A stretch of DNA of 64,000 nt from a virus: IMG/VR virus record IMGVR_UViG_3300021405_000009, positions 1 to 64,000 of that record; one strand, given 5' to 3'. The translations under genes were made by a program, and so were the position numbers. Positions 37,108-52,258 of the stretch are shown here, one piece after another (within the stretch, counting starts at the first letter, position 1; every line of letters begins with the position of its first letter). Under the pieces are notes generated by a model. It was not told the origin of the DNA. It was given only the letters and a program-made list of their open reading frames with translations, and made no database searches.

Positions 37108-37743
37108 TTACACGCGATCGATGGAGAACTCGGTCAACTGCACCGCGTTCGGGGAAGTCCCGGCCGAGAAGGTGAAGGTGAGTTCGAAGTTCAAGTCAGC
37201 GAACTTCAGCCCCGAGCCGATCGTGCCGCCAGAGAGCACGGCGTTGATCGTGTAGGCGGGAGTGGTGGTGAAGTTCGTCCACGACGTGGAGCAGAAGCCG
37301 CCCAAGCTGCCAGCGGTCGAGTTGAAGAGCAACTGCCACTCGTACATGAAATCGACGGTCGCCACGTTCGAGCTGGCGATGGTCGCGCAGGTGTGGAGCA
37401 AGGTGCAGCCGGTGCCTACAACGCCCGTCGAGGTCACGCTGCCCGCAGCCCCAATCACGCCCACGGCAACGCCGTTGACTTGGTAAAGGATGGGGATAAT
37501 CGTGGCCGCGCCACCAGTCGTGGTCGCCTTACCGCAGGCGCGGATCTTCAGCGGGTGGACATCAGAGTAGCCGGAAGCGATATCCGGAGTGGGCGAAACC
37601 GTCAGGCCAGCGCCTGCAGGAAGCACAGGAGAGGGAAGGCCGGGATAGCCGGAAGCGGGAACAAGAAACACGTTGGCGGTGGTGCCACCGGCCAACTGGG
37701 CGGGCAGGTTGTAGAAGCCGTAAATGGTGTTGACGTTACTCAT
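37108..37743 (-). CDS. Virion structural protein (divergent member of paralog family A)
   Basis: PLKIRACG, EWQLLFNS, ends TEFSIDRV (compare SEFSITQL, NEFALERL). Confidence 0.5.
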   Translation of the reverse strand: MSNVNTIYGFYNLPAQLAGGTTANVFLVPASGYPGLPSPVLPAGAGLTVSPTPDIASGYSDVHPLKIRACGKATTTGGAATIIPILYQVNGVAVGVIGAAGSVTSTGVVGTGCTLLHTCATIASSNVATVDFMYEWQLLFNSTAGSLGGFCSTSWTNFTTTPAYTINAVLSGGTIGSGLKFADLNFELTFTFSAGTSPNAVQLTEFSIDRV

Positions 37744-38181: not shown

Positions 38182-38212
38182 CACTTGACACGGCAGAGTA
38201 CAGTCAAAGTTA
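38182..38212 (+). promoter_or_regulatory. CACTTGACA-N8-TACAGT promoter-like element
   Basis: One of three intergenic copies; an A follows 7 nt after the hexamer, at the base of a hairpin. Confidence 0.55.
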
Positions 38213-38471: not shown

Positions 38472-38519
38472 GAGCCCCGCGACTATTACGGGAGCTGTTC
38501 TGACTTTCACAGATTTACA

Positions 38520-38614
38520 TCGCGGACAAGGGATGCGGCTGGAATTTGCAGGAGTCGAACCTGCGACGCTTTTTGAGCGTTTCATCAGGATAACCAGCTC
38601 ACTTCGGCCCGCGA
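38520..38614 (-). ncRNA. Y RNA, YrlA-like (tRNA-mimic)
   Basis: Terminal stem UCGCGGGC-C(bulge)-GAAG / CUUGUCCGCGA (Ro60-binding helix; compare GGUCCGA/UUGAC), GCUGG/CCAGC, GUUAUC, ACGCU/AGCGU hairpin, canonical T arm GCAGG-UUCGACU-CCUGC. Confidence 0.75.
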
Positions 38615-38633
38615 ACTTTTTAGGAGGACAGGA

Positions 38634-38882
38634 ATGCCAAACTTGGGAGACAAGGTACGCGATAAGATCACGGGCCACGAGGGTATCGTCATCGCCCGCA
38701 CGGAGTGGCTCTATGGCTGCGTGCGCTATGTCGTTCAGGGCCAGACGCTGCATGAAGGCAAACCCACAGAGCCCCACACTTTCGACGAAGACCAACTCGT
38801 CGTCCTCAAGGCCGATGCTCTCAACGACAGCGAAGAGAAGCCTGCCGGTGGCGATCGCGATTATGTTGCCACGCGGCGCTGA
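38634..38882 (+). CDS. Small SH3-like conserved phage protein
   Basis: LGDKVRDKITGHEGIVIARTEWLYGC..FDE; AGGAGG RBS. Confidence 0.75.
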   Translation: MPNLGDKVRDKITGHEGIVIARTEWLYGCVRYVVQGQTLHEGKPTEPHTFDEDQLVVLKADALNDSEEKPAGGDRDYVATRR

Positions 38883-38986
38883 CGACTTTATGGGCGCTAC
38901 GACTGCATGTTCTTTACATCTAGCAGTGGGGAAGAAATCACCAAAGAACCACTGCGGCGTGGAGGCGGCTAGCGCCCGCCAAAAAG

Positions 38987-39017
38987 CACTTGACACGGGC
39001 TACTAGAATAAAATCCA
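38987..39017 (+). promoter_or_regulatory. CACTTGACA-N8-TAGAAT promoter-like element
   Basis: Second copy; the A after 7 nt is the first base of AGGAGAGG. Confidence 0.55.
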
Positions 39018-39030
39018 GGAGAGGATCACG

Positions 39031-39522
39031 ATGCGACATTTTTACTTACGCGACCGAGATACATTGTTTCCTGTAGCCTGTATCGCCACCGAACGACAAA
39101 CCAACGACACCAAAATTGCTTACGCCCTGTCCGTGTTCCATGAGGGCGATGACATGGACATCCGAATAGCCCGGCGCATCGCGCGCGGAAGACTTGAGGA
39201 ATACATCAAGGGTCGGTACGACCAGAAGAACGAGGGCTGGGCCAAGTTCGGCGTCGTGGTGCTGGAAGATCCAAAGTCCAACGCCAAGGTGAAACTGTTG
39301 GCCACCGTTGCGGCCGATCCCGAAGTCCCGAGCGTGGCACGCAAGGCCGCCAAGGAGTGGCTGAAGAACATGACCGGCACACCTGAGCAACAGGCGGTGC
39401 AGCGCAAGCTCGACAAGGAATGCCGCATCATCAACGGCACGCTCCAGGTGCAAGACTGGTGGCGCGCTAAGGCCGTCGCGCTGCAGATGGAGCTGGACGA
39501 ACTAGTGAAGGCCGTGGCTTAA
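39031..39522 (+). CDS. Hypothetical protein
   Basis: Good RBS, 163 aa. Confidence 0.7.
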   Translation: MRHFYLRDRDTLFPVACIATERQTNDTKIAYALSVFHEGDDMDIRIARRIARGRLEEYIKGRYDQKNEGWAKFGVVVLEDPKSNAKVKLLATVAADPEVPSVARKAAKEWLKNMTGTPEQQAVQRKLDKECRIINGTLQVQDWWRAKAVALQMELDELVKAVA

Positions 39523-39605
39523 CGGGTGTCGTCACTCGTCCGGGGTGGCGGCTCGAAGGGGGTCGCTACGCCCCGAGTGTGGCGGCCTCCGACGAAAGGG
39601 GACCC

Positions 39606-39890
39606 ATGCTGGTCGTCGAAGTCCCGATGTCAAGTTGGCAACTGCTGCCACCGCGACCGGATGTTTGTCAGGAGTGTGCCACGAATCATCCTGCAGAGCA
39701 TCCGCATAACCAGCAGAGTCTGCATTACCGGTACCATTTCTATCTCAGGACTGGGCGCTGGCCAACCTGGACTGACGCGATGCGGCACTGCAGTCTTGAG
39801 ACGAGGAGCGCTTGGACGGCGGAGCTGGAGAAGCTTGGCGTCCAGGTGCGTGAGGTCTACAGAAATTGGGGGAACCCTGAGCGATGCTGA
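39606..39890 (+). CDS. Cys/His-rich conserved phage protein
   Basis: CQECATNH..HPHN..GRWPTWTDAMRHC. Confidence 0.65.
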   Translation: MLVVEVPMSSWQLLPPRPDVCQECATNHPAEHPHNQQSLHYRYHFYLRTGRWPTWTDAMRHCSLETRSAWTAELEKLGVQVREVYRNWGNPERC

Positions 39891-40093
39891 CTGAAATCGA
39901 AGAAGGCGACAAGGTAGTCCGGATGATCGCTGGGACGATCCCGCATCCGCTCACCGTCACCAAAGTGACTGCGCAGGTGATCGAGTGCGGCCCGTGGATG
40001 TTCGATCGCGCCACCGGTGCTGAGATCGATGAGGATCTCGACTGGGGTCCGCCACCGAGAAGGACTGGCAGCTTTATCAAGGAGCAGGAATGA
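39884..40093 (+). CDS. Hypothetical protein
   Basis: Overlapping operon gene. Confidence 0.6.
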   Translation: MLTEIEEGDKVVRMIAGTIPHPLTVTKVTAQVIECGPWMFDRATGAEIDEDLDWGPPPRRTGSFIKEQE

Positions 40094-40539
40094 AATCGAT
40101 GAAGGCCCGCGTGCTCGCTGCCTGCGACTGCTGCGGCGATCTCGACGTGAGGCACCCGATCACCGGCAAGCGCGAACGGCTGGAGAGTCGTAGCCCTAAG
40201 CTCGCCGCCAACCTCATGGCCAGACTGGCTCGACGTGAGCCGGTCGAAATCAGCGTGACGATCGGCGAGACCGTCGAAGAGTGCGTGCAGGCTCACCTGA
40301 ACTTTGTCGGCCAACTGGCCGCTCAGCTAGGGCAGCGCTTCGTGCCGGAGTACTCTGCGGCTAAGGAACTTGCTCAACAGACCGGGCTCGGATATGTCAA
40401 CCTGAACGAAGGCTACGACCAGTGGCTGCTGAAGACGCTGCAGGCCAACCTGGGCGATATCGAGGGCAAGATTGCCGAAGCACTGGAGGCCGGGGTCATG
40501 CCGATCATCCACTGGGATGTGGATGAGGAGACGAACTGA
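40090..40539 (+). CDS. Hypothetical protein
   Basis: ATGA overlap. Confidence 0.6.
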   Translation: MKSMKARVLAACDCCGDLDVRHPITGKRERLESRSPKLAANLMARLARREPVEISVTIGETVEECVQAHLNFVGQLAAQLGQRFVPEYSAAKELAQQTGLGYVNLNEGYDQWLLKTLQANLGDIEGKIAEALEAGVMPIIHWDVDEETN

Positions 40540-40796
40540 TGGCCGCGAGCATCCACGATCTCCGGCAGTGGTTCCTCGACGGCGTCGCCACCGGCGCTAC
40601 CCACGTGATTGTCGTGTGCGATACCTACGACTACTCCGACTATCCCGTCTACGTCTACGTCAACGATGACGTGCGCAAGGTGGCGGGAAAGTATCAGCTC
40701 CGCTCAGGCAATATGCAGAAGGTGATGGAGGTCTACAATCTCAGTATGGACATGGAGCAGCAACTGGCGTCGGAAGAGCTGGTGTTCAATTACTGA
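40539..40796 (+). CDS. Conserved phage hypothetical protein
   Basis: GATHVIVVCDTYDYSDYPVYV..MEVYNL. Confidence 0.7.
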   Translation: MAASIHDLRQWFLDGVATGATHVIVVCDTYDYSDYPVYVYVNDDVRKVAGKYQLRSGNMQKVMEVYNLSMDMEQQLASEELVFNY

Positions 40797-40818
40797 CTAC
40801 CACAAGTGGGCGGAGCGC

Positions 40819-41031
40819 GTGCGAACACTGAACGACGTGTGGGCTTTTGTGCTAGTGACGGCGCTGATCGGGCAATGCGCGGCGCTGATGTTCGGCCGAC
40901 GAACCCTACTCTTTATCGCCTGGGTACCGACCGTGATCCAGACTGTAGGGACGATTTGCTTCCGGGGTTGCCCGCTTAGGAAGCTGGAGAAATGGTTGCG
41001 AAGGCGCGGGAACGGGAGGAGTGATCTATAA
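40819..41031 (+). CDS. Small membrane protein
   Basis: Hydrophobic; GCPL..LEKWLR. Confidence 0.5.
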   Translation: MRTLNDVWAFVLVTALIGQCAALMFGRRTLLFIAWVPTVIQTVGTICFRGCPLRKLEKWLRRRGNGRSDL

Positions 41032-41052
41032 GCGTACCTGTTCGAGTGAGTT

Positions 41053-41226
41053 ATGGATAGCTTCGCCTTCTATCGAGTGACCGGCCCCTTCGTGCAGTTC
41101 GAGGCCCTGCTGGGCGAGATCCAGATCGAGTTGCTCTTTTACAAGCACTACGTCCGAGGACGAATCGTCAACAGGGTGTACCAACCCGCAAACCAGGAAC
41201 GCCGGAGAGTAGCTCATGGAAGTTAA
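41053..41226 (+). CDS. 57-aa hypothetical protein (not in ORF track)
   Basis: MDSFAFYRVTGPFVQFEALLGEIQIELLFYKHYVRG... Confidence 0.45.
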   Translation: MDSFAFYRVTGPFVQFEALLGEIQIELLFYKHYVRGRIVNRVYQPANQERRRVAHGS

Positions 41227-41383
41227 CCGCGCGATCGACAGCATAGCCGACATGAAGCCGCGAGGAGTAATCGCACTCGCGAACGCTGTCGCCTGGACGC
41301 CATGCCAGCACTTCAAGCAGTGTGTTGGCCTCTGCCCAGTCTGCTGGGCGCTCTACCTATTCCGGCCCGAGCCGAGTAAGTGA
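41216..41383 (+). CDS. 55-aa Cys-rich protein (not in ORF track)
   Basis: CQHFKQCVGLCPVC; GGAG RBS. Confidence 0.45.
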   Translation: MEVNRAIDSIADMKPRGVIALANAVAWTPCQHFKQCVGLCPVCWALYLFRPEPSK

Positions 41384-41557
41384 ATGCGGACCCTGAGCCG
41401 TAGCTTTATCGTGATGCACCTGGCCATCTCGCTGGCCTACACCTACATCGTTACCCGCCTCGGATACATGACCCGGCCCTGGGTCCTCTTTATATTCGGC
41501 GCTTACTGGGCAGGCGTTATAGGTCGGTGGATACAAGATCGCAGGTCCGGCCGGTGA
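41384..41557 (+). CDS. 57-aa membrane protein (not in ORF track)
   Basis: Two hydrophobic segments; abuts upstream stop. Confidence 0.45.
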   Translation: MRTLSRSFIVMHLAISLAYTYIVTRLGYMTRPWVLFIFGAYWAGVIGRWIQDRRSGR

Positions 41558-41570
41558 AGGAGAAAGAAGA

Positions 41571-41774
41571 ATGCGGACCCTGGGCCGCTTACAGGAAGCA
41601 CTCCAAGTGCTGAGCACTAACTTCACCCAGAAGGCTGGAGTCTTCCGGCGCAACGACCCGACCTATATTCCGACTCCGCTCGAATCTGACGCCATCGACT
41701 ACCTGTGCTACGAGTGGGACTATGGCTATGAGGGAGGTTTGGTAAGCGAAGAAAAGGGACCCGGTACCTGCTAG
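41571..41774 (+). CDS. Hypothetical protein
   Basis: AAGGAG RBS; AIDYLCYEWDY. Confidence 0.6.
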   Translation: MRTLGRLQEALQVLSTNFTQKAGVFRRNDPTYIPTPLESDAIDYLCYEWDYGYEGGLVSEEKGPGTC

Positions 41775-41780
41775 GTGACT

Positions 41781-42151
41781 CGGGGTACTTGGGGGTAGGC
41801 CAGGGGGTAAGGCCGGGGTATAAGCCTCGACAAAAGCGTAAAGTAGTACTCCGCCAGACGCGAAAAGAACAACACGAGTTCCCACCGAACCCACCACAAA
41901 CGAGCTAAGTGCATGAAAACAAGCGCAATCGGCAAATAGCGGCGAGCCGATTGCTAAGCTTTTGTCTAGGTCAGCGTTGCCGTTGCCGTTCGTTGCCGAC
42001 CTGTGTCAGGATTGACACACTGCCAACATGGTGCAGCATCGGCCGCGCCATGACGGCGAACAAACGGCGAACGAAAAACTGCTAGCGAACGAACGGCGAA
42101 AGCGAAGCAAAAGCGAAACAAACTTTTTTCGCTTTGTTTTCAAGTACTTGC
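41781..42151. repeat. Non-coding repeat cluster (probable genome terminus/packaging region)
   Basis: Four GGGG(G)TA units, imperfect inverted repeat 41904-41925/42130-42151, CGTTGC x3, ACGGCGAA x3 plus further GCGAA units. Confidence 0.5.
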
Positions 42152-42156
42152 CGACT

Positions 42157-42201
42157 ATTTAAAAAATTGTGTTGACAAACTGCGGCAATTCGTGAAATAC
42201 C
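42157..42201 (+). promoter_or_regulatory. Early promoter (UP-like A tract, perfect TTGACA, degenerate -10)
   Basis: ATTTAAAAAATTGTG-TTGACA(42172-42177); -10 only weakly matches. Confidence 0.55.
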
Positions 42202-42213
42202 GATCATGCAAGC

Positions 42214-42255
42214 CGGGGTTGCAAACGCACCCCGAGATAGCGGCTCTTTGACAAC
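42214..42255 (+). promoter_or_regulatory. rrn-like boxB hairpin plus boxA antitermination site
   Basis: Hairpin CGGGG(U)UGC-AAAC-GCACCCCG, then GCTCTTTGACAAC, one mismatch to rrn boxA GCTCTTTAACAA. Confidence 0.65.
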
Positions 42256-42263
42256 CCAACAGT

Positions 42264-42690
42264 CCGACAGTTCGGCGTCGGCGCTTAGTTCAGCCCAGCC
42301 CAGATGTGGCACGGCGTGAGCGGAGGGATAGCTTCTAAGCGCGGGCAACGGTGATTCTGTCGGCACGATTACTGGGATACTCCGCGTCGTGAGACGTGAG
42401 CGAGTCCTGACACGGTAATCGTCTGACCCATGGCTCTGAGAAACCTAGCGCATGTGGTCAGTCTAAGCCGGGACCATGGTCAGCGTTCAGCCTAGCGAGG
42501 CAATGCGAGCACGGACACAGCAACGAATAGCTAGAGCGCAGCATGTTATGCCACCATGGCACAGCGAAACCCAATGCTAACTCTTGTGGGGCACGACTAA
42601 TCACCGTGCCCTACTCTTTGAGCGCCTAGGTAGCTAGGCGTTGAAAGAGTAACCAAATAGGCTTGCGGATAGCCCTAAGCCGCAGATAGG
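42264..42690 (+). ncRNA. Large structured leader/ncRNA
   Basis: About eight stem domains, mostly abutting, with G-U pairs and GNRA loops; no plus-strand ORF in the track. Confidence 0.55.
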
Positions 42691-42698
42691 AATACACC

Positions 42699-43037
42699 AT
42701 GAAAAACCCGAACAACAACGTCGTCACGTCCGCTGTCCCCACACCCGAGGAATACGCCGCTCTGTTGGCCAAGGTCACCGAACTCCAGTCCAAGGTGGAC
42801 CGGAAGAAACGGCAGGACTCTGGCTCAGTCACCCACAACGGATTAAAGCAAGTCGTGTCCGAGAAGGGCGGGGTCAGCGTGTATGGATTAGGGCGCTTCC
42901 CGGTCACGCTATACGCTGAACAGATGCTCAGACTGTTGGATGCTGGCGCGGACATCCGCACGTTCATCGCCGAGAACATGGCCAGCCTGAAGTTCAAGCC
43001 CGCGAAGGATGAGCAAGCTGAAGCGGCTGCCGCCTAA
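42699..43037 (+). CDS. Conserved hypothetical protein (SEKGGVSVYGLGRFPVTLY family)
   Basis: Recognisable motif after an N-terminal coiled coil. Confidence 0.75.
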   Translation: MKNPNNNVVTSAVPTPEEYAALLAKVTELQSKVDRKKRQDSGSVTHNGLKQVVSEKGGVSVYGLGRFPVTLYAEQMLRLLDAGADIRTFIAENMASLKFKPAKDEQAEAAAA

Positions 43038-43116
43038 TCGTTGCCGAGGTCACTAGCAAGCCCATGAGCGTAAGGCTGGTGGGCTTGCCTAGCCATCTAG
43101 GCTATGGAGGACTGGT

Positions 43117-43365
43117 ATGTCCAGAGCATTCGATCTATCGCAGGTAGTCCAGTTCGTGCCCACGTCTAATCTTTGCGGCGTGGACGCGATTGTTTGTCAC
43201 CCAGACGATACCATGCGCGTTGCCACTGAGAGCATGTGCGTTAGCTTTGGCGGGAAGGAGAAGGTCGAGTTCATCCTTGCCGCCCTAGAGTACTACCGCA
43301 AGCACGTCATGATCCATGCTGAACCGGGGCAGGTGGGCGGATGGTTGCAGTTGCCAAAGCATTAA
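43117..43365 (+). CDS. Early hypothetical protein
   Basis: GGAGG RBS. Confidence 0.6.
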   Translation: MSRAFDLSQVVQFVPTSNLCGVDAIVCHPDDTMRVATESMCVSFGGKEKVEFILAALEYYRKHVMIHAEPGQVGGWLQLPKH

Positions 43366-43472
43366 AGCGCATGGCCAACTAGGCTCCGGCCTAGCAATGG
43401 GCTCACCCGAGTCTGTTGCTAGTCCGGATCACGGGCTAATCCGCCGCAGGGCGTTAACCTGGGAGTAGAGTT

Positions 43473-43616
43473 ATGCAACGAATTGTCCGCAAACCAAAGT
43501 TCAACCCGCGCAACAGTGACGGTTCATTCAAGTCCATCGACCAGATCATGCGCGCAACCATGACCGTATTAGAATATGGGCGTATGCTTGCCCAGACTCG
43601 GAGGCCAGGGTATTAA
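43473..43616 (+). CDS. 47-aa early protein (not in ORF track)
   Basis: MQRIVRKPKFNPRNSDGSFKS...; GGGAG RBS after hairpin motif. Confidence 0.5.
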   Translation: MQRIVRKPKFNPRNSDGSFKSIDQIMRATMTVLEYGRMLAQTRRPGY

Positions 43617-43837
43617 TGCGCAAGCCCAAAGTGCCTGACTATGTGCCCCAGCAGTCCATACGCTGGCTGATGGGGCGAGTGCATGTCGGTACGCCTGATG
43701 CTGAGGTTGAGGCCGATATGCGTAAACGGTGCAGTAAGGCCACCGAAGAACAGGCGGCAGCTTGCGTGGAGTTTGCGCTGGCTTGCCACCATGAGAACCA
43801 AGGGCTGTACAGGTCTGTGATGTCTGGGAGGCTGTGA
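43616..43837 (+). CDS. Early hypothetical protein
   Basis: TAATG overlap; HVGTPDAEV motif. Confidence 0.65.
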   Translation: MRKPKVPDYVPQQSIRWLMGRVHVGTPDAEVEADMRKRCSKATEEQAAACVEFALACHHENQGLYRSVMSGRL

Positions 43838-43940
43838 TGTTATCCCAATTCCACGCTGCGCATCCAGTGCTCTACGCCATTGCACTGTGCTGCGTCTACG
43901 TCGAGGCCATGCTTATTTCGATGGCCATGAGGAGGTGACT

Positions 43941-44390
43941 GTGCCTAACTATGTGGTCAGCGAAGAACACGCCGCGAAGATAGCGGAATGGATTAAAGCG
44001 CGCGGCGGTATCGCCATCTGGGAGTCGATCAGCCTAAACTGTCCGGGCGAGTCGATGACTACGCCTGTCCGCAAAGCGGACGGAACTCCAACCACCAAGC
44101 CAGACTGGAAGCTGGGGAACACTCCAGCGCGGATCATTACCGACATGGCTGAGGTTACTGTGTCGCAGGATGTCGAGGTCAAGCGCTTTCATGTGGCCGT
44201 GCGTTTTGGAGCGCAGGGCCTAGCTCTCAAGGTCACCGATGGCGGCACACGCCGTATTCAGCGTGAGGTTGCCAAGGCAGGCGAGGGAGCGTATTACGTG
44301 TTTGACTATGGCAGCGAGGAGAATGCTGTCATCATGAAGCCAGCGAAGCTGATCCCGCTGACTGAGTGGCTAACCGCCGTGGGGCGTTAA
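43941..44390 (+). CDS. Early hypothetical protein
   Basis: GTG after GAGGAGG; WIKARGGIAIW. Confidence 0.7.
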   Translation: MPNYVVSEEHAAKIAEWIKARGGIAIWESISLNCPGESMTTPVRKADGTPTTKPDWKLGNTPARIITDMAEVTVSQDVEVKRFHVAVRFGAQGLALKVTDGGTRRIQREVAKAGEGAYYVFDYGSEENAVIMKPAKLIPLTEWLTAVGR

Positions 44391-44473
44391 ACCTGGGGGA
44401 TGTACAATGCAGAGCTTTATGGAATGGGTGCATGAATACCTTGCATCCAAAGACCGCCGTGGGGCGTTAAACC
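44373..44473 (+). repeat. 21-bp direct repeat ACCGCCGTGGGGCGTTAAACC
   Basis: Copies at 44373-44393 and 44453-44473. Confidence 0.85.
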
Positions 44474-44491
44474 ATGGGAGCACACCAGCCA

Positions 44492-44791
44492 ATGCCAATG
44501 ACGCTACAGCAAGCTGCCAAGGAAGCGATCGACTGTCAGAACGCAGCCAACCTGTCCGGAGTATTGGACAGCTTTCACCGGGTAGTGATGGAAGTGATCT
44601 GGCCCGAGGCCCGAAGGCAGGGTAAGGGCACAGACTTCGTGAATACCCACCCCGTTGTCTATCTGTTCCTCGACAAACTCACCAGCCTGAATCACAGGCA
44701 ATGCCTGTGCCACGACAACATGGACAATTACCACGAGGCGTACACTCAGGCGCAAGAGATGGCGGCCGAGATCTACTGCGACGCCAGTTAG
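44492..44791 (+). CDS. Early conserved phage protein
   Basis: AIDCQNAANLSGV..NTHPV..DKL. Confidence 0.7.
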   Translation: MPMTLQQAAKEAIDCQNAANLSGVLDSFHRVVMEVIWPEARRQGKGTDFVNTHPVVYLFLDKLTSLNHRQCLCHDNMDNYHEAYTQAQEMAAEIYCDAS

Positions 44792-44844
44792 CCGCGAGCA
44801 TGAGGCGTAGGGCACAGCCTATGCCGATTGCTGGAGGCTTAACT

Positions 44845-45213
44845 ATGCGATACGGCAAAACAGTACACGTGTCAAAACTACACGTTGGCGATGTGGTGCG
44901 CCCAGTTCGCGGGCCATCATTCCCAACGGCGTCCAAGGCTGGCGATGCGGATGACTTCCGCGAAGGCTACGATGCCATGGTTGTGGTCTTTGAGGACGAT
45001 AAGTACCTCACGTTCCACAGACCGCACATCGAAGTCTATCAGGACGGCATTCCCAGCGTGAATCACGTCACAGTCGGGGTTGAGATCGTGAACATGGTGC
45101 CCAGAGACCATACGGGGCTGTACTACGAAGTCCTTGCCTACGGCCCGGCTCACGTGGACGACAAGGGCCACCAAGTCAGCCACTGGCAAGTCAGCCACTG
45201 GGAGAAGGTGTAA
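44845..45213 (+). CDS. Early hypothetical protein
   Basis: GGAGG RBS; MRYGKTVHV. Confidence 0.65.
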   Translation: MRYGKTVHVSKLHVGDVVRPVRGPSFPTASKAGDADDFREGYDAMVVVFEDDKYLTFHRPHIEVYQDGIPSVNHVTVGVEIVNMVPRDHTGLYYEVLAYGPAHVDDKGHQVSHWQVSHWEKV

Positions 45214-45341
45214 GCTACCCTAGCCTTGACTGGCTAGGTGGATGCTGGGATAACGGAACTTATGGACCCGTGGGCTGTTATGAGCAGCCTGTCCCAGTGT
45301 CCACTTAGCTTGTCCGGTAAGCGGACAGGTGAGGAGGAGTT

Positions 45342-45542
45342 ATGGCACAGTTCGAGTGTCGTATCATCGAACGCCTAGTTCGCGTCTATCGGGTTGAGGC
45401 CAAAGACGCGGATGAGGCGGATATGTTATTGCAGATCGGAGACAGTCGGTTGTATCAGGTCGATAGCTTTCCGATTGACTCCGAAGACGGCGAAGCATGG
45501 CACGAAGTGGCTGGGGAGTACGGGGAGGCGCAATGCCTGTAG
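45342..45542 (+). CDS. Early hypothetical protein
   Basis: GAGGAGG RBS; YRVEAKDADEA. Confidence 0.65.
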   Translation: MAQFECRIIERLVRVYRVEAKDADEADMLLQIGDSRLYQVDSFPIDSEDGEAWHEVAGEYGEAQCL

Positions 45543-45781
45543 TGATCGAGCGTGACCACATTGCAGGTGCGCGACTACTGACGCTGAGGTCTGCGTTTGG
45601 ATTAGAGCTGAAAGGCATGTCCAGACGCGGGCGCTCGGTGTACAGCATCGTGAAGCGGGAGTTTGGGCTTCGCGGGAATCAACAGCGGGTATACGACCAG
45701 TTCGATACGCTCGTTACTGAGCGGACAGGAGTGGCGCGTCATGGCGAACCAACTGGACCACGCCCAGCTCTACGCCCTTGA
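45533..45781 (+). CDS. Early conserved phage protein
   Basis: LELKGMSRRGRSVYSIVKREFGLRG. Confidence 0.65.
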   Translation: MPVVIERDHIAGARLLTLRSAFGLELKGMSRRGRSVYSIVKREFGLRGNQQRVYDQFDTLVTERTGVARHGEPTGPRPALRP

Positions 45782-46142
45782 AGTGTATGCGCGTGAGCAT
45801 GGGCGCAACTGGAAGTCTAAGCTCAACCTCGACTGGATGACTGGCGGCACTACTGGAACACTCCAGCAGATACGCAATTCATTCGGCCCAACCTGGCTCA
45901 CGCGATTCAATCTCAAGCGCGAGCTGGCGTCAGACTGGTATCGGCGCGTATCCTGCGACCAATGCCAGATGCTGGCCATTAATGGGGTAGCCTGTCACGA
46001 GACAGGTTGCCCAAACATGGGCGCGCGATGGGATCGGGAGAATCAGGTCTGGGTGAAACAGCGCAAATGCTTCGACTGTGGCTATATGGTCGATCTGGAT
46101 GACATGTGCTGCTCTGCGCCCATGGAGGGAGAGGACGAGTAG
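45741..46142 (+). CDS. Two-domain early protein (helical domain plus Cys-rich Zn domain)
   Basis: HGRNWKSKL..LQQIRNSFGPTWL fused to CDQC..INGVACHETGCP. Confidence 0.7.
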   Translation: MANQLDHAQLYALEVYAREHGRNWKSKLNLDWMTGGTTGTLQQIRNSFGPTWLTRFNLKRELASDWYRRVSCDQCQMLAINGVACHETGCPNMGARWDRENQVWVKQRKCFDCGYMVDLDDMCCSAPMEGEDE

Positions 46143-46345
46143 CAGAAGGGATTGCAGTATTCTTCGGGATGGCCCTTGTCCAGCAAGCACGCCAGTATCC
46201 CCTCGGGCGTAGGGCAAGGCTTCCCGCATTTAGTGGTCCAGATAATCATGAGAGGACGGGAGTTGAGATAACGCGCGGCATTAAAGCGCGTCGATGCCAA
46301 GGTACTACAGCCGGGCCGCAATGCCCCTAAACTAGGAGGAGAGAA

Positions 46346-46558
46346 ATGAAGCGAGCAGGCAAGCCTGAGATCATCAACGCGGCTGCGAATGTTGTGGAAG
46401 CGCAGATCGCCGTTGACCATGCGGAGAAAGCTGGCGACGATGCCAAGCGCTATCGCGATGCACTGGCAAGTTGCGTTTACAGCTTGCGGTGGCTGATAGA
46501 GCGCGACAGGCCGGAGATTACAGCACGCTTCCGCAGTGCCGAGGCCGTAACCAAGTAG
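46346..46558 (+). CDS. Early hypothetical protein
   Basis: AGGAGG RBS. Confidence 0.6.
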   Translation: MKRAGKPEIINAAANVVEAQIAVDHAEKAGDDAKRYRDALASCVYSLRWLIERDRPEITARFRSAEAVTK

Positions 46559-46634
46559 CGCGGCAGTCCTGCCTTACTCGCTAATACAGGAGCTGGGCAG
46601 GGTCAGCCGTACTAATGGCTGGGAAGGAGTAATC

Positions 46635-47198
46635 ATGTCCGAGTACACGGAGCAAGCGGAGGAATTCATGCGCAAGCATGAGCTAACATTCCGCGTCGTT
46701 CACATCGGCAGCGATTGCCCGACGTTCTGTGAAGATAGGGTCAAGGGAATTGCGATGGACAAGCTCGACGAGTTCCCGCGCAAGTCCCACATTCATGGCC
46801 ATCACTATCTTTGCACGATTAGCGGGAAGGAGCGGAGTGCATTCCAGATTGACTTCTGGAATAGCTATGCCGACGAGTTCCACAACTGGGCACTCAAGCA
46901 TCGCATAGCAGCGATGCCGTGGGCTACAACCATCTCCAGCATGTCCTATAAGCTACAGGACATGATTAAGGCGGAGCTGAAGAAGGGCAAGCAGCGCTCC
47001 GAGCCCACTCCCTACGATGTCCTGGCTTGCATCACAAAAAGCGAGCCGGGTAGCTTTGAAGAGTTTTGCGGAGAGTTCGGCTACGATACCGATTCCCGCA
47101 AAGCCGAACAGGTCTATCTTGCCGTGCAGGCCGAGTGGTCGAAGGTCCGCAGGTTCTTCACGGCGGAAGAGATCACCGAGATGCAGGAGATCTCATGA
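46635..47198 (+). CDS. Early conserved phage protein
   Basis: PTPYDVLAC..SFEEFCGEFGYDTDSRKA. Confidence 0.75.
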   Translation: MSEYTEQAEEFMRKHELTFRVVHIGSDCPTFCEDRVKGIAMDKLDEFPRKSHIHGHHYLCTISGKERSAFQIDFWNSYADEFHNWALKHRIAAMPWATTISSMSYKLQDMIKAELKKGKQRSEPTPYDVLACITKSEPGSFEEFCGEFGYDTDSRKAEQVYLAVQAEWSKVRRFFTAEEITEMQEIS

Positions 47199-47392
47199 AG
47201 TTGAAGCTGGTCATCACGATGGACAACGCAGCCTTCGAGCCTAACAACGGCGTAGAGGTTGCTCGCATCTTACGCCAACTCGCCGACCAAGAGGAAGGTA
47301 ACCAACTGTCGCCCGGCGATAAGTGGAAGTTGCGCGACATCAACGGCAACACAGTCGGCGAAGCTGTTATTCGTCAAAGCCGCCGGAGGTAG
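47195..47392 (+). CDS. Early conserved phage protein
   Basis: DNAAF..EVARILR..LRDINGNTVG. Confidence 0.7.
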   Translation: MKLKLVITMDNAAFEPNNGVEVARILRQLADQEEGNQLSPGDKWKLRDINGNTVGEAVIRQSRRR

Positions 47393-47394
47393 CA

Positions 47395-47622
47395 TTGAAA
47401 ACAGTAACGATCAGCGAGCGGAGTAAGCACAAACTACTCCACATCGAAGCACCGGGCTGCATTGTCAACATCACAGTTGGGCTAACTGACAGTAGCCATC
47501 ACGCTATAACTGCGGTCCACATCAAATGCGATGAGTCAGGCGAAGAATCGAGTCGCTTGCCTGACTTTGGCGACACAACCCATCTCGGCGTCCGCGTGAG
47601 AATGCTGAAGCCGCGACAGTAA
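47395..47622 (+). CDS. Early hypothetical protein
   Basis: TTG after GGAGG; LHIEAPGCIVNI. Confidence 0.6.
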   Translation: MKTVTISERSKHKLLHIEAPGCIVNITVGLTDSSHHAITAVHIKCDESGEESSRLPDFGDTTHLGVRVRMLKPRQ

Positions 47623-47663
47623 ACCCACTAACCGTGCATGGCACGTTAAACAGGAGAGCGCCT

Positions 47664-48521
47664 ATGGAGAATGCGAAGCCAAGGTGCCCGTATCTCGCGA
47701 TCAACATCCCCGGTGAGCGTCCCTTTGTGGTCGAACGACGGTTGTACGAATCGGCCACGCGGGGCATTCACATCGTGGACACCACGCTCACCAAAGAGCT
47801 GGTGAAGGATCATGGCGAAATATGGGTGCTGACCGTGAAGCACGACAGCGGCAGGGTGCGCGGAACACTCAAGTTCTACAGCCTGCTGCAAACCAAGTTC
47901 AAGGGTACCTACTGGATATTCAAGCGCGACTTGGCCGATTGGGCCGCGCGCGCGTTCAAAAAGAAGTGCGCCAGTGTGGCTGGTCCGCCAAGCAAACACG
48001 CGAAGCAGATTGCCCGGCTGGAACGTGAGCTGGCAAAGCTGTATGCTCATCAGCCAAAGAATCCACTGCTGCGGGAGCCCAGCGTGTACCACATGGGCCG
48101 CGAGTATACCGAGCGATGGTACGGTGATCGAAGCCAGCGAATGCAGTTGGCTCTAATCGGTGGCTGGGTTCTAAAGGGAGTGATTACGCCTGTTAAGGCG
48201 TATGAGCTTCTGGAAGAGGCTGGCTACAGCGTGCGGCGATTCAGTAAAGTCACGCCCAACACGCGCAGGCACTACGATGTCCACTTCGACGTGGACTATT
48301 GGAAGAAGCTGTACTGTTTTGCGTCGGGGCTGGAGGACAGGCGCAGAACGTTTGTAGATACGCCGTTGCCGCAACAGCTCACCGAGCACCGTGAGCACCT
48401 GATCCAGTTCATCGAGAAGAGACGAGAGATTGTCTCCATCGAGAACCAGATCGCATCGATCAAACTGTTGGCCGAAGCTGTTGTACCAGCGGCTAACGAG
48501 ACTGGGGTGGTGTACGCATGA
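47664..48521 (+). CDS. Early hypothetical protein
   Basis: AGGAG RBS after hairpin motif; 285 aa. Confidence 0.7.
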   Translation: MENAKPRCPYLAINIPGERPFVVERRLYESATRGIHIVDTTLTKELVKDHGEIWVLTVKHDSGRVRGTLKFYSLLQTKFKGTYWIFKRDLADWAARAFKKKCASVAGPPSKHAKQIARLERELAKLYAHQPKNPLLREPSVYHMGREYTERWYGDRSQRMQLALIGGWVLKGVITPVKAYELLEEAGYSVRRFSKVTPNTRRHYDVHFDVDYWKKLYCFASGLEDRRRTFVDTPLPQQLTEHREHLIQFIEKRREIVSIENQIASIKLLAEAVVPAANETGVVYA

Positions 48522-48763
48522 AGCCGGACAAGGTCAAGATCACAGTGCAGGTACTAAACGGTGCCACGGGCGAAGTACGCGAAGTGGTTGCCAATGTCAC
48601 AGCCGTCAGCGAGCAGCACGCGGTTAACGTGTTGTTTGCTCGGGCGCGGCGTGACGATTACTACTACCGCTTTCTCGCATCGTCCGGCATCATCGGCCCA
48701 CAACATGAGCACGCAAAGGCCGTGGAGCATGAGTCGATGACGTATTGGGCGCTGGAAGGCTAG
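48518..48763 (+). CDS. Early hypothetical protein
   Basis: ATGA overlap. Confidence 0.6.
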   Translation: MKPDKVKITVQVLNGATGEVREVVANVTAVSEQHAVNVLFARARRDDYYYRFLASSGIIGPQHEHAKAVEHESMTYWALEG

Positions 48764-48771
48764 GGGGTTAA

Positions 48772-49224
48772 GTGGAGGATAAAGTCACCACGATCACCGT
48801 CACGCCAAACTACGAGGCGATCTTCGAGCAGTTCAGGCGAGATGCACAGCTTCACCTGAACTCCTTCACCTACAACCAGAAGAAAACTTTCACGCGCAGC
48901 GAGGTCTATGCATTCGTAGCCGCAATGCGTATTGCACTCGGAGCGGCTACCACCATCCCGAACATCGAAGCATTACGCACGGTGTTGGACGATGGCGGGG
49001 AGAAGATGTTCGCCGTGCTGCAGGAGGAGCAAGAGCCAGTCGAGACGGTCTGCGTTGTCTGCAACGAAACCAACCTGCTAGAGCATGGGGAAGACCTGAA
49101 GACTCGCGTCTGCGATGACTGCAAGCGCGTGGGTTCGGTCATGCTCATGTCCGAGTACAACCTGCTCCCTGTGGCAGAGCTGGAGCCATTGCGAAGGAGG
49201 ACGATTGAGCAGAACAAGCGCTGA
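48772..49224 (+). CDS. Early protein with C-terminal Zn finger
   Basis: CVVC..CDDC. Confidence 0.6.
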   Translation: MEDKVTTITVTPNYEAIFEQFRRDAQLHLNSFTYNQKKTFTRSEVYAFVAAMRIALGAATTIPNIEALRTVLDDGGEKMFAVLQEEQEPVETVCVVCNETNLLEHGEDLKTRVCDDCKRVGSVMLMSEYNLLPVAELEPLRRRTIEQNKR

Positions 49225-49384
49225 CGTGTACTTAGGCGGTCGCCTAATCGACGGCTACGACTACGCGAATCAGGCATGGGTCGTAGACGGGAAGTATGTG
49301 CGCTGCGGGCATCCGGAGTCGATGGCTTGCGGATGCTATGGGCGCGTTCATGCCGGAGAGGAGACTCGTGCCAGTGCGGGATAG
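49205..49384 (+). CDS. Small Cys/His protein
   Basis: TTG after AAGGAGG; GYDY..QAWV..CGHP..CGCYG. Confidence 0.6.
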   Translation: MSRTSADVYLGGRLIDGYDYANQAWVVDGKYVRCGHPESMACGCYGRVHAGEETRASAG

Positions 49385-49653
49385 AAAGTGGTATCTCGTT
49401 GGGTATGGCGGTATCGGATGCGGCCATTACCACAAATCAGCAAGCACAGCACGGCGGTGCTTGCTGCGCTTCCGCGCGTGCGTTAGCGACCGAATGCGGA
49501 GATATTGGGGCGTCTACGCGATGTCGCGCAAAGGCGGCAAGTTGCATCATGTTAGGCTGAAAACTGCATCACGCAAACCTTGAGCACTCATCCAGCGCAC
49601 TGGCCAAGCAGTGCTCTGGAGTGGCTGCTCCACAGCCAGAAAGGAGGACCTAA

Positions 49654-49824
49654 ATGAAGGCTAGCGATGTAGTCTACAAGCTACAGCGCATGATTAAAGC
49701 TCACGGTGACTTGGCGGTCGAGGTTGAGACCGATCAGGCCATTGTGCCCGCACAAGGGATTCGTCTGATGCGTTCCGATTCGGAGCGCGGGGATACCATC
49801 ATCATCAGGGGAGGCCAACAGTGA
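49654..49824 (+). CDS. 56-aa early protein (not in ORF track)
   Basis: MKASDVVYKLQRMIKAHGDLAV; AAGGAGG RBS. Confidence 0.65.
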   Translation: MKASDVVYKLQRMIKAHGDLAVEVETDQAIVPAQGIRLMRSDSERGDTIIIRGGQQ

Positions 49825-50420
49825 AAAAGAAAACTAAGGCGCGTATTAAAGCGCAACCAAAACCTGCCACGGTCACCGTCACGCTGTCATCGAATGACTT
49901 CGGTCAGATGATGGACGGACTACGCGAGCGGCAGACCGCGTGGAGGATCACTGCCGAACACTGGCGCGGCGAGGAAGATCATGCCGAGGCCATGGAGTAC
50001 GGGATACAAGAATGCTCAGGCGAAGACGAGGCCCAGAAGATCGCGGATCATTACCAGAAGCTGATCGCCGATCTGGAAGGGCAGCAGAAATGGCGCGGCG
50101 ACTTCGATCTGCTCGAAAACGTTGCCGCCATCTCCGCCGAACTATGGGGTGGAGATACCAAGCGCAACTTCTACGTCCGCTTCGGCGCGGAGCTGAGCGG
50201 ATTCCCCGGCGTGTGGGCGTATTCCGTTCAAGCGGCGCGCGCTTTCACGAAGGCGGAGGAACGATTCGCGAAGGAGATCGGCAGGAAGCCGGAACACTCC
50301 TACGAATATCTCGACGCGATCCTTCACTTTGCCGAATGGCTGGCCACAGCGGAGACGCTGCCAACCACTGCCGAGCTTGAGGCGAAGGCATGGGGAGCAT
50401 TACTGGCAGCGCGCAACTGA
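49821..50420 (+). CDS. Early hypothetical protein
   Basis: GTGA overlap. Confidence 0.65.
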   Translation: MKKKTKARIKAQPKPATVTVTLSSNDFGQMMDGLRERQTAWRITAEHWRGEEDHAEAMEYGIQECSGEDEAQKIADHYQKLIADLEGQQKWRGDFDLLENVAAISAELWGGDTKRNFYVRFGAELSGFPGVWAYSVQAARAFTKAEERFAKEIGRKPEHSYEYLDAILHFAEWLATAETLPTTAELEAKAWGALLAARN

Positions 50421-50438
50421 AGCCAGAAGGGAGAAGAA

Positions 50439-50861
50439 ATGACGGAGAGCCAGGAACAAACCATTCAGATGCTCAAGTGGTTCCGCGACTGCCACGCCAA
50501 CAACGGCGTACCGCAGAGCTGGTTCTATAAGGGGCCAGCGGACCTGTTGCTGCGCGAGGGCAAATGGTACGACGAGGGCCATGTGATTGACTGGAAGCGC
50601 AGCGTACCGCAAGCATGTTTCCGCAACGCGGCTCTGTACGCCATGCTGCACCGCCTGCCTTACATCGAAGGCTACGCGACCGGCATTATTCCAGTGCATC
50701 ATGCGTGGTGCCTCGACGCCGTGGGCCGCGTGTGCGAGGTCACATGGAAGGAGTTGGGCACCGATTACTTCGGCGTTGCGTTCAAGCCGAATCTGGTCAC
50801 GCGCGGCGCTGTGCTGTTCAATGAACAGGATTGCTCGGTATATACGCGAAAAGTGCGGTAA
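50439..50861 (+). CDS. Papain/transglutaminase-fold protein
   Basis: QACFRNA, YIEGYA, HHAW and EVTW motifs (Cys-His-acid triad). Confidence 0.6.
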   Translation: MTESQEQTIQMLKWFRDCHANNGVPQSWFYKGPADLLLREGKWYDEGHVIDWKRSVPQACFRNAALYAMLHRLPYIEGYATGIIPVHHAWCLDAVGRVCEVTWKELGTDYFGVAFKPNLVTRGAVLFNEQDCSVYTRKVR

Positions 50862-50899
50862 AATCCGTCCGTTAACCGGACGTTAAACTGGAGAACCGA

Positions 50900-51211
50900 A
50901 TGCCCGTTGAAATCACGTGCGAGTCGCCGAAGGGTGGCGCTGCGAAGCTGGGGAAGGATGTGACTGTGAGCTACGCCGTAGCTTCGGTCGCCGAATACCC
51001 AGCCTCTGAGCTTTTCTACGCCTGGGTCAAACTGCCCAACGGAAAGACTGTATCGCTGTTCGTCAACCGCGAGACTGGGCTGGTCGTGGTGGACGTTGTC
51101 CGCAAAGATGAGCGCGGGGGGAACGAGATCCTGCGCACAACCGTGGACAGGGTAGTCATGCCAACCAAGCGCCAGCTCGACGCAGCGGAGGTTGTGGACC
51201 CTACCTCGTGA
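50900..51211 (+). CDS. Early hypothetical protein
   Basis: GGAG RBS after hairpin motif. Confidence 0.65.
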   Translation: MPVEITCESPKGGAAKLGKDVTVSYAVASVAEYPASELFYAWVKLPNGKTVSLFVNRETGLVVVDVVRKDERGGNEILRTTVDRVVMPTKRQLDAAEVVDPTS

Positions 51212-51600
51212 CCCTCGCTGAATTCATCGCGGCGCACACTCTGGGGTTCACCTGTGAAAGGGTGAGTCCCAGGCTGTGGCGTTGCCGCATCACGTGCGGG
51301 GTTACCAAAGAGGCGGAGCGCGGGATGAGTTTCTTTCATCTCAGCTCCACCGAGCCCACCTTGGCCGATGCGCTCAGCCGTCTGGCGAAGGTGTCTCACC
51401 AGCACGTGGCCACGAAGCTGCCAACCGGACTGGCTGCCAGTCGGGATAAGGCGTCATTCCAACACTGGTGCGTGCTGTACGATCACGATCCCGAGTCGCG
51501 TAAAGATCGGGCGCACTATCTCACTATCCGGCGACGCGCCGAGCAGCTTAGGTATGTGCTCGGTACTGCCGCGTTCAAACAATTACTGGAGGTCGCGTGA
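51208..51600 (+). CDS. Paralog of 46635-47198
   Basis: PTLADAL..SFQHWC..YDHDPESRK. Confidence 0.6.
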   Translation: MTLAEFIAAHTLGFTCERVSPRLWRCRITCGVTKEAERGMSFFHLSSTEPTLADALSRLAKVSHQHVATKLPTGLAASRDKASFQHWCVLYDHDPESRKDRAHYLTIRRRAEQLRYVLGTAAFKQLLEVA

Positions 51601-51893
51601 CGGCGCTAAAGCGAACCCGAACCTGTAAGCGTTGCAAGCGCGAGATGGATAAGCACCACTACTTCTACTCGCCGACTGACGACGTTTGCATCGAATGCGG
51701 TCCTGATGTCAACTTCCTTAAACAGTCAAAGAGGCTGGCCCGAGAGCACGGTACTGGTGCGCTCGAAGCCAAGTTCCTCGACTACATCCGCCGCGCACGA
51801 TTAGTGCGCGAGGTCATGCGCGGCCTTAGAAGGGAGGCTAAAGACGGATCATCCACACCCAGACAAACGACACGTCGTCCGCCAAGTGCGTAG
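51597..51893 (+). CDS. Zn-finger hypothetical protein
   Basis: CKRC..CIEC. Confidence 0.55.
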   Translation: MTALKRTRTCKRCKREMDKHHYFYSPTDDVCIECGPDVNFLKQSKRLAREHGTGALEAKFLDYIRRARLVREVMRGLRREAKDGSSTPRQTTRRPPSA

Positions 51894-52258
51894 ATACCTA
51901 CTGGCGGCGAAGATGCGGTTTAGCTCTGACAAACTGCCACAGCCGGGCGGGAAACGAATCCCAAGACGTGGGGCTAGAAGTCTCGTGCATTACAGGGATC
52001 TCATAGCCACATACCAGACGGCCAAGCGGCAGTTGCTGACCGAGAAAGGGGGGAACAGTTGAGACTACTGAAGATGATCGGTCGCTGGGCGAAGTGGCTC
52101 TATGAGGAGACCTTCAACACTAGCGAAGCCAAGCGCCGCGACTTCGAGCGGCGAAGGAATCAAACCCCGCTGTAGAGTGCGATGCGCATCGCGTCCGGTC
52201 CATTTAGAAAAAGTAGTACACAATTTCTTAATGGCCTTGGCGCGGTGCGGAGTGCGCT

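Follow-up and report, generated by a model that had tools for sequence, protein, structure and literature searches.

The 427-nt stretch at positions 42264-42690 is non-coding, and its structural signal comes mainly from two 3' stem-loops, 42588-42612 and 42612-42651. Our leading reading, which we hold tentatively, is that the stretch represents the untranslated 5' leader (approximately 450-500 nt) of a plus-strand early unit whose first gene is 42699-43037, and that this leader begins 3' of a TTGACA/A-T tract, carries a boxA-like element and has, at its 3' end, stems of the RNase III style that are typical of the early region of this phage. All positions refer to the window, i.e., the whole 64,000 nt of DNA that was analysed; these are the first 64 kb of an IMG/VR virus record that is linear, 98 kb long and an estimated 77% complete. 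The minus strand of this window carries the terminase, portal and major capsid genes in a block that spans 1 to ~37.7 kb, and small plus-strand genes are found from ~38.5 kb on. The stretch is located inside a 924-nt gap (41775-42698) between the plus-strand genes 41571-41774 and 42699-43037. A preliminary description of this DNA had placed it at the front of an early transcript; consistent with this placement, it is found 3' of promoter-like and boxA-like signals and directly 5' of the first gene of the unit. The features of the gap are listed in Table 1.

Table 1. Features of the gap upstream of 42699-43037 and of this gene (window coordinates; z-scores relative to shuffled sequences)
Feature	Position	Strand	Basis or score
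Terminator-like hairpin, perfect 9-bp arms (41925-33/41946-54), then T-rich run	41925-41965	+	inverted repeat, sequence
Short tandem repeats: CGTTGC x4.3; 14-nt unit x3; 11-nt unit x2.2	41974-42122		repeat scans
11-mer TTTGTTTTCAA, after A/T-rich 12-nt hairpin (42110-42135)	42133-42143	+	common to related phages
A/T tract (UP-like), then TTGACA (42172-42177); candidate promoter	42155-42177	+	sequence
Small hairpin 5' of boxA, in the position of boxB	42213-42234	+	fold of 42204-42264 z -1.16, not significant alone
boxA-like GCTCTTTGACAA	42243-42254	+	pattern match
D1: outer 7-bp helix around 8-bp GCGCUUAG/CUAAGCGC and two small hairpins	42264-42364	+	z -2.62, 1/200 shuffles as good
Helix CCGACAG/CUGUCGG	42264-70/42358-64	+	sequence
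Helix GCGCUUAG/CUAAGCGC, 8 bp	42281-88/42335-42	+	sequence
5' arm, long-range 13-bp complementarity (one bulge) to 42599-42611	42343-42356	+	inverted repeat
D2: ACGAUUAC/GUAAUCGU with inner GUGA-capped hairpin	42365-42423	+	z -1.93, 9/200 shuffles as good
Helix ACGAUUAC/GUAAUCGU enclosing GUGA-capped hairpin	42365-72/42416-23	+	sequence
CUGACCCAUGG with two possible partners (42451-61, 42474-83)	42424-34	+	sequence
Middle part, alternative short pairings	42424-42587	+	z +0.89 (42428-92), +0.44 (42488-586)
8-bp GC-rich hairpin	42588-42612	+	z -3.66, 0/200 shuffles as good
Helix GGGCACG/CGUGCCC	42589-42611	+	sequence
8+9-bp stem, one G-G mismatch, 4-nt loop, without U tract 3'	42612-42651	+	-27.4 kcal/mol, z -6.79
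Small hairpin (42660-42681), Shine-Dalgarno AGGA (42688-42691), start codon (42699-42701)	42660-42701	+	hairpin z -0.94
First gene after leader, 112 aa, motif SVYGLGRFPVTLY	42699-43037	+	7915 relatives

Codon periodicity was not found in the 924-nt gap. GC contents by codon position were 0.54/0.54/0.55 across the whole gap and 0.55/0.57/0.58 across 42264-42698, compared to approximately 0.6/0.4/0.73 in the flanking genes. The ORFs in the gap (28-102 aa) did not match PHROG or Pfam, and none of them is preceded by a Shine-Dalgarno sequence comparable to those of real early genes, such as the AGGA ahead of 42699 and the GGAGG ahead of 43117. The flat composition, the lack of PHROG or Pfam matches and the lack of a good Shine-Dalgarno bear out the non-coding status that had been proposed. 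A hidden gene or pseudogene in the gap was also considered and dropped, given the flat codon-position GC and the lack of a PHROG or Pfam match.

The helices listed in the preliminary description are all present in the sequence, and the folding program recovered most of them. The whole of 42264-42690 folded with a minimum free energy (MFE) of -175.3 kcal/mol (z -4.07, none of 100 shuffles as good) and did so better than its minus strand (z -2.49), in agreement with the plus-strand orientation assigned before. This advantage over shuffled sequence was seen for the whole stretch but not for its first 322 nt (42264-42585), which gave a z of -0.71 with 28 of 100 shuffles as good; extending this part to 42611 gave a z of -2.19. 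Folding of D1 and D2 was marginal, and while their helices may be present in the RNA, nothing here indicates selection on them. Perfect helices of at least 7 bp numbered 7 in the whole stretch versus 2.2 in shuffles (p 0.01), a count matched by 2.7% of genomic windows, and 4 versus 1.7 in the 5' 322 nt (p 0.09). The whole-stretch MFE structure uses the long-range helix 42343-56/42599-611, which competes with the local hairpin 42588-42612. The proposed ~430-nt multi-domain RNA with tertiary structure was not supported by this analysis, as three quarters of the stretch fold like shuffles, the significant structure consists of two local stem-loops and the overall z is ordinary.

How ordinary this z is can be seen from other parts of the same genome. 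Among six 427-nt sense-strand windows sampled from the mostly coding 43-53 kb early region, four gave z-scores of -3.5, -4.8, -2.8 and -2.8; late-gene windows of this length ranged from +0.6 to -1.4. The neighbouring stretch 45214-45662 (z -6.55) folds far better than 42264-42690. Because mostly coding early windows and 45214-45662 score as low, a z of about -4 is ordinary for this early region. A 60-nt scan also identified many stems that match 42591-42650 in strength between early genes, at 39531, 43051, 43371, 45581, 45971 and 51231, and the overall z reflects these intercistronic stems of the early region. A low z over 430 nt can arise from one or two strong terminal hairpins, and comparison with neighbouring windows should precede any claim of a new large RNA that is based on such a score. 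As a separate observation, 45214-45662 holds a 66-aa ORF (45342-45542) with a strong GAGGAGG ribosome-binding site and flanking stems of ~20 bp or more.

Just upstream of 42264, GCTCTTTGACAA is the sole exact match to GCTCTTTRACAA in the 64-kb window; allowing one mismatch gave 2 matches versus 0.42 in shuffles. The boxA consensus has been reported as UGCUCUUUAACA in E. coli and AUGAUCUUUGAAA in B. subtilis (PMC13753749) and as GYTCTTTAANA (PMC5725501), and rrn leaders carry a hairpin first and boxA next (PMC13753749; PMC5725501). By sequence, GCTCTTTGACAA is a boxA of the rrn-leader type that mixes features of the E. coli and B. subtilis consensus; its difference from the gammaproteobacterial consensus is at position 8, where it has the G of B. 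subtilis and not the A of E. coli. The element is found ~70 nt 3' of the TTGACA/A-T tract and just after the hairpin 42213-34, with no recognisable -10, and it includes a TTGACA that could have another meaning. If antitermination is involved, this boxA is a better candidate than a put-like RNA. The 15-mer that contains it had 102 matches in IMG/VR, approximately the chance expectation, without flanking similarity. The possibility that boxA represents a family-wide feature of the downstream gene was rejected, as boxA-like counts were at background in 1.8 Mb of loci holding this gene family.

Under the leader reading, transcription would start near 42200. No good -10 hexamer of the sigma-70 type was found 3' of the TTGACA at 42172 and a sigma-70 scan reported nothing there, so the transcription start site is a guess. 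The nascent RNA would then show the small hairpin followed by the rrn-type boxA (42243-42254), which, by analogy with rrn leaders, could recruit host NusB/S10 and other Nus factors. The Nus-loaded polymerase would be able to cross ~450 nt of ribosome-free RNA without Rho-dependent termination. Further downstream, the stems at 42588-42651 would be cut by RNase III or serve as a 5' stabiliser, and the mature 5' end would thereby be set immediately 5' of the ribosome-binding site; comparable stems between the early genes that follow would act likewise. The stem 42612-51, with 8+9 bp and one mismatch, ends 48 nt before the start codon and is a candidate RNase III or stabiliser stem, and stems similar to or longer than this one precede other early genes. 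No U tract is found directly 3' of 42588-612 or of 42612-51, and a plus-strand terminator scan was empty across 42264-42690; lacking a U tract, the terminal stems 42588-42651 are not terminators.

Several lines of evidence are consistent with this leader reading, including the lack of codon periodicity, the confinement of the structure signal to 42588-42651, the recurrence of like stems in the early region and the better folding of the plus strand. In addition, a single exact boxA follows a hairpin in the order found in rrn leaders, and in three related phages an ORF-poor gap with strong hairpins is found before the homologous gene. Specifically, in G022, G020 and G027 the homologue of 42699-43037 follows a 1.1-1.6 kb ORF-poor gap with strong hairpins in its last 150-250 nt. 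These three gaps do not show sequence similarity to the 42264-42690 leader, and a boxA was not found in them. Against the leader reading, no sigma-70-type -10 hexamer follows TTGACA and the promoter scan is empty there, none of the other loci examined has a boxA ahead of the homologous gene, the 17 pairs of the stem 42612-51 are at the short end for RNase III, and a long leader is not a trait of the downstream gene family, which usually has ~90 nt before the gene.

In the early region of phage T7, promoters A1-A3 give rise to a long leader, and RNase III sites, R0.3 among them, are found between the early genes. RNase III processing stems in phage early mRNAs typically consist of an irregular double strand of approximately two helical turns located between cistrons. 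The T7 early leader with R0.3 represents the closest functional parallel to the proposed leader. Both have an untranslated stretch of several hundred nt ahead of the first early gene, with a strong irregular stem just 5' of the ribosome-binding site and similar stems between the small early genes that follow; however, the two do not resemble each other in sequence, tandem promoters cannot be demonstrated here, the stem has 17 bp and its cleavage is putative.

In rrn operon leaders, boxA and the Nus-factor complex are expected to keep Rho off ribosome-free transcription, and boxA is also found ahead of suhB and CRISPR arrays. The resemblance of the gap to an rrn leader (hairpin/boxB, boxA, boxC) consists of a small hairpin with a boxA-type sequence just 3' of it, close to the 5' end of a long untranslated RNA. 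The two differ in that the setting here is a phage, no boxC was identified, boxA is not conserved in related phages and Nus binding is putative. Cis-acting RNA elements that make polymerase resistant to termination right after early promoters are also represented by lambda nut, in which boxA precedes boxB and the N protein is needed, and by HK022 put, which has ~70 nt, two specific stem-loops of ~35 nt each and its own conserved sequence. Here, in contrast to lambda nut, the hairpin precedes boxA and no N-like gene was identified in a search that was not systematic, while put is comparable by position only. If the leader reading is true, an uncultivated phage of ~100 kb uses a host rRNA-type boxA without an N-like protein to take RNA polymerase across a long leader devoid of ribosomes, which would bring Nus-factor antitermination into a new phage setting and would be no surprise to specialists.

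Besides the promoter-like A/T tract and its TTGACA at 42172, the gap houses the end of the previous unit, represented by terminator-like hairpins. The hairpin 41925-41965 probably ends the upstream plus-strand unit, judging from its arms and T-rich run. The short tandem repeats at 41974-42122 are arranged as an imperfect inverted repeat of 21 nt on either side of a TTGACA at 42012, and a 150-nt window from 41975 had a z of -4.7; possibly, these repeats are operators or iterons. The 11-mer TTTGTTTTCAA was found in 1-2 copies in each of five related records of ~50-109 kb, compared to 1 in all for a reversed-pattern control. Its copies are located at 42133-42143 in the window, at G022:C1:28007-28017 and 28343-28353 (-), and at G020:C1:26742-26752, G027:C1:35910-35920 and G031:C1:32396-32406. 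In the window, G022 and G020, the motif is found 5' of the homologue of 42699-43037, within the ORF-poor gap; in G027 it is ~1.1 kb downstream of this homologue, and a homologue was not found in G031. The context of TTTGTTTTCAA varies, as some copies follow a terminator-like hairpin and others a TAAGT/TATAAG-like element, and possible roles of the motif include those of a promoter, a terminator and a unique site, for example an origin. Elsewhere in the window, CAC-TTGACA followed after 8 nt by TACAGT/TAGAAT/TACAAT was observed at 38185, 38990 (+) and 57233 (-), a spacing that is odd for a sigma-70 promoter.

These upstream elements raise the possibility, unlikely on balance and yet deserving of attention, that the gap is mainly a DNA-level control region with promoters, operators and perhaps an origin, in which case most of the RNA helices in 42264-42585 would be incidental and only the terminal stems would matter as RNA. 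The tandem and inverted repeats at 41974-42122, the three TTGACA hexamers within 240 nt and the single-copy TTTGTTTTCAA kept across related phages in like gaps all point in this direction, as does the shuffle-like folding of the 5' 322 nt. However, the repeats and the conserved motif are all located upstream of 42264, the 427-nt stretch itself has no evident DNA repeats or palindromes other than the stems, and the plus-strand folding preference points to RNA.

Considerably less probable is that the stretch forms a new class of large structured RNA, either discrete or cis-acting, in which the long-range helix 42343-56/42599-611 would close a multi-branch domain with D2 and the middle helices, with D1 and 42612-51 alongside. 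Arguments for it are that the MFE structure of the whole stretch uses the 13-bp long-range helix, with a z of -4.07 to -4.43, along with the enrichment of perfect helices (7 versus 2.2) and the retention of 430 nt of non-coding sequence in a compact genome. The hexamer CTAAGC is scarce in the 64-kb window, with 10 plus-strand copies, and 4 of these are found within 727 nt (41954, 42335, 42463 and 42675, i.e., in 41954-42680). GGAUAGC is followed by CUAAGC at two sites, 42325-42342 and 42666-42682, both of them on the 3' side of a hairpin. Repeated-hexamer enrichment was also evaluated and rejected, as it was significant versus shuffles and ordinary versus other genomic windows; an internal duplication of ~127 nt was not significant (p 0.08). 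With regard to the suggestion that GNRA loops and CUAAG segments could mediate tertiary contacts, CUAAG is indeed present three times and there is one GNRA loop, GUGA, which is the only GNRA among the loops named in the preliminary description, but the UAUGG partner of the canonical tetraloop receptor is absent from the last hairpin.

Searches for known classes and for homologues speak against such a large RNA. At gathering thresholds, the 4227 models of Rfam had no match in the whole 64-kb window, and at E up to 10 only two chance-level matches were found in 41700-43100, both outside 42264-42690. The stretch therefore does not match any Rfam 15 family, including GOLLD, ROOL, riboswitches, introns, 6S and tmRNA, which agrees with the original statement that it could not be matched to a known class. 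While it resembles GOLLD, ROOL and HEARO in being several hundred nt of phage non-coding sequence with a predicted multi-helix fold, it differs from them in that none of the Rfam models matched it, including at E = 10. ARAGORN did not report anything either. Homologues were sought in a phage database, in 41 related viral contigs and in ~280 loci with the downstream gene family. A distant-mode blastn search of 41900-42720 against 50,697 phage records did not detect DNA similarity, and neither did a DNA search for the stretch in 41 IMG/VR records with a capsid protein that is 57-93% identical. Searches with blastn and nhmmer against 16 and then ~200 loci holding the downstream gene family did not find a homologue of the stretch, nor did scans of IMG/VR for exact copies of the boxA 20-mer or of the stem apex. 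A single-sequence covariance model of D1+D2 matched only itself in 1.09 Mb of related loci. Moreover, z is only -0.71 without the 3' stems, two of the proposed segments fold no better than random sequence and mostly coding neighbours reach the same z. Because most of the stretch folds like shuffles and no relative was found, these data do not establish a new large structured RNA.

A switch-type attenuator or a put-like cis antiterminator, in which alternative pairings would govern expression of the first gene, is improbable. The pairings in question are 42424-34 with 42451-61 or 42474-83 and 42599-611 with 42588-95 or 42343-56. Both pairs of alternative partners exist in the sequence, including those that the preliminary description had named as a possible switch, and a location between promoter-like signals and the first gene would fit; however, the segment with the first of these alternatives folds worse than shuffles (z +0.89), a terminator with a U tract does not follow any competing hairpin, ligand-binding or put-like families were not matched, and short alternative pairings are common by chance. 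Put-like and decoy-sRNA ideas found no specific support. Similarly improbable is a further reading, in which the whole leader (~42204-42698) would be one large domain closed by 42343-56/42599-611, with a Nus complex nucleated at boxA aiding its folding in the way that such complexes serve as chaperones of pre-rRNA, and in which the repeated GAUAGC and CUAAGC would be protein-binding sites of a new phage class of regulatory or decoy RNA. Finally, that 42264-42690 conceals one or more small protein-coding genes on either strand is highly improbable, since the ORFs of 28-94 aa that exist (42206-42319 and 42476-42580 on the plus strand, 42082-42366 and 42458-42604 on the minus strand) face the flat codon-position GC, the lack of PHROG or Pfam matches and the lack of a Shine-Dalgarno on par with real early genes.

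The product of 42699-43037 belongs to a family with 7915 matches and the core motif SVYGLGRFPVTLY, and it did not match Pfam or PHROG. Its predicted fold consists of a helix, three strands and a helix (model pLDDT 68.6). The best matches of this model by VIA-align were PC4/Sub1-type ssDNA-binding domains, all of them weak (Z 3.9, 3.7 and 3.0), and Foldseek did not find a clear fold match (E of 1 or more). Proteins 58-92% identical to this product are found on contigs of up to 99.7 kb, several of which measure 33-100 kb, and metagenome relatives are at most 57% identical among the matches listed. In 157 loci of the family, a median of 90 nt separates the gene from the previous ORF; a long leader thus does not characterise the family, and a long upstream gap as a family-wide feature of this gene was rejected on this basis.

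In a local tblastn comparison of 38500-52000 with eight capsid-related records (G004, G017, G020, G022, G023, G026, G027 and G031; capsid 69-90% identical), the early genes were almost wholly different. The only recurring homologues in these records were those of 37108-37743 and 42699-43037, plus two marginal matches. In many related contigs, the tblastn match of the 328-aa major capsid protein spans 1.2-1.4 kb and not ~1 kb (loci L049, L051, L052, L061, L065-L071, L076, L077 and others), which suggests that the capsid genes in those contigs may carry insertions such as introns, inteins or extra domains.
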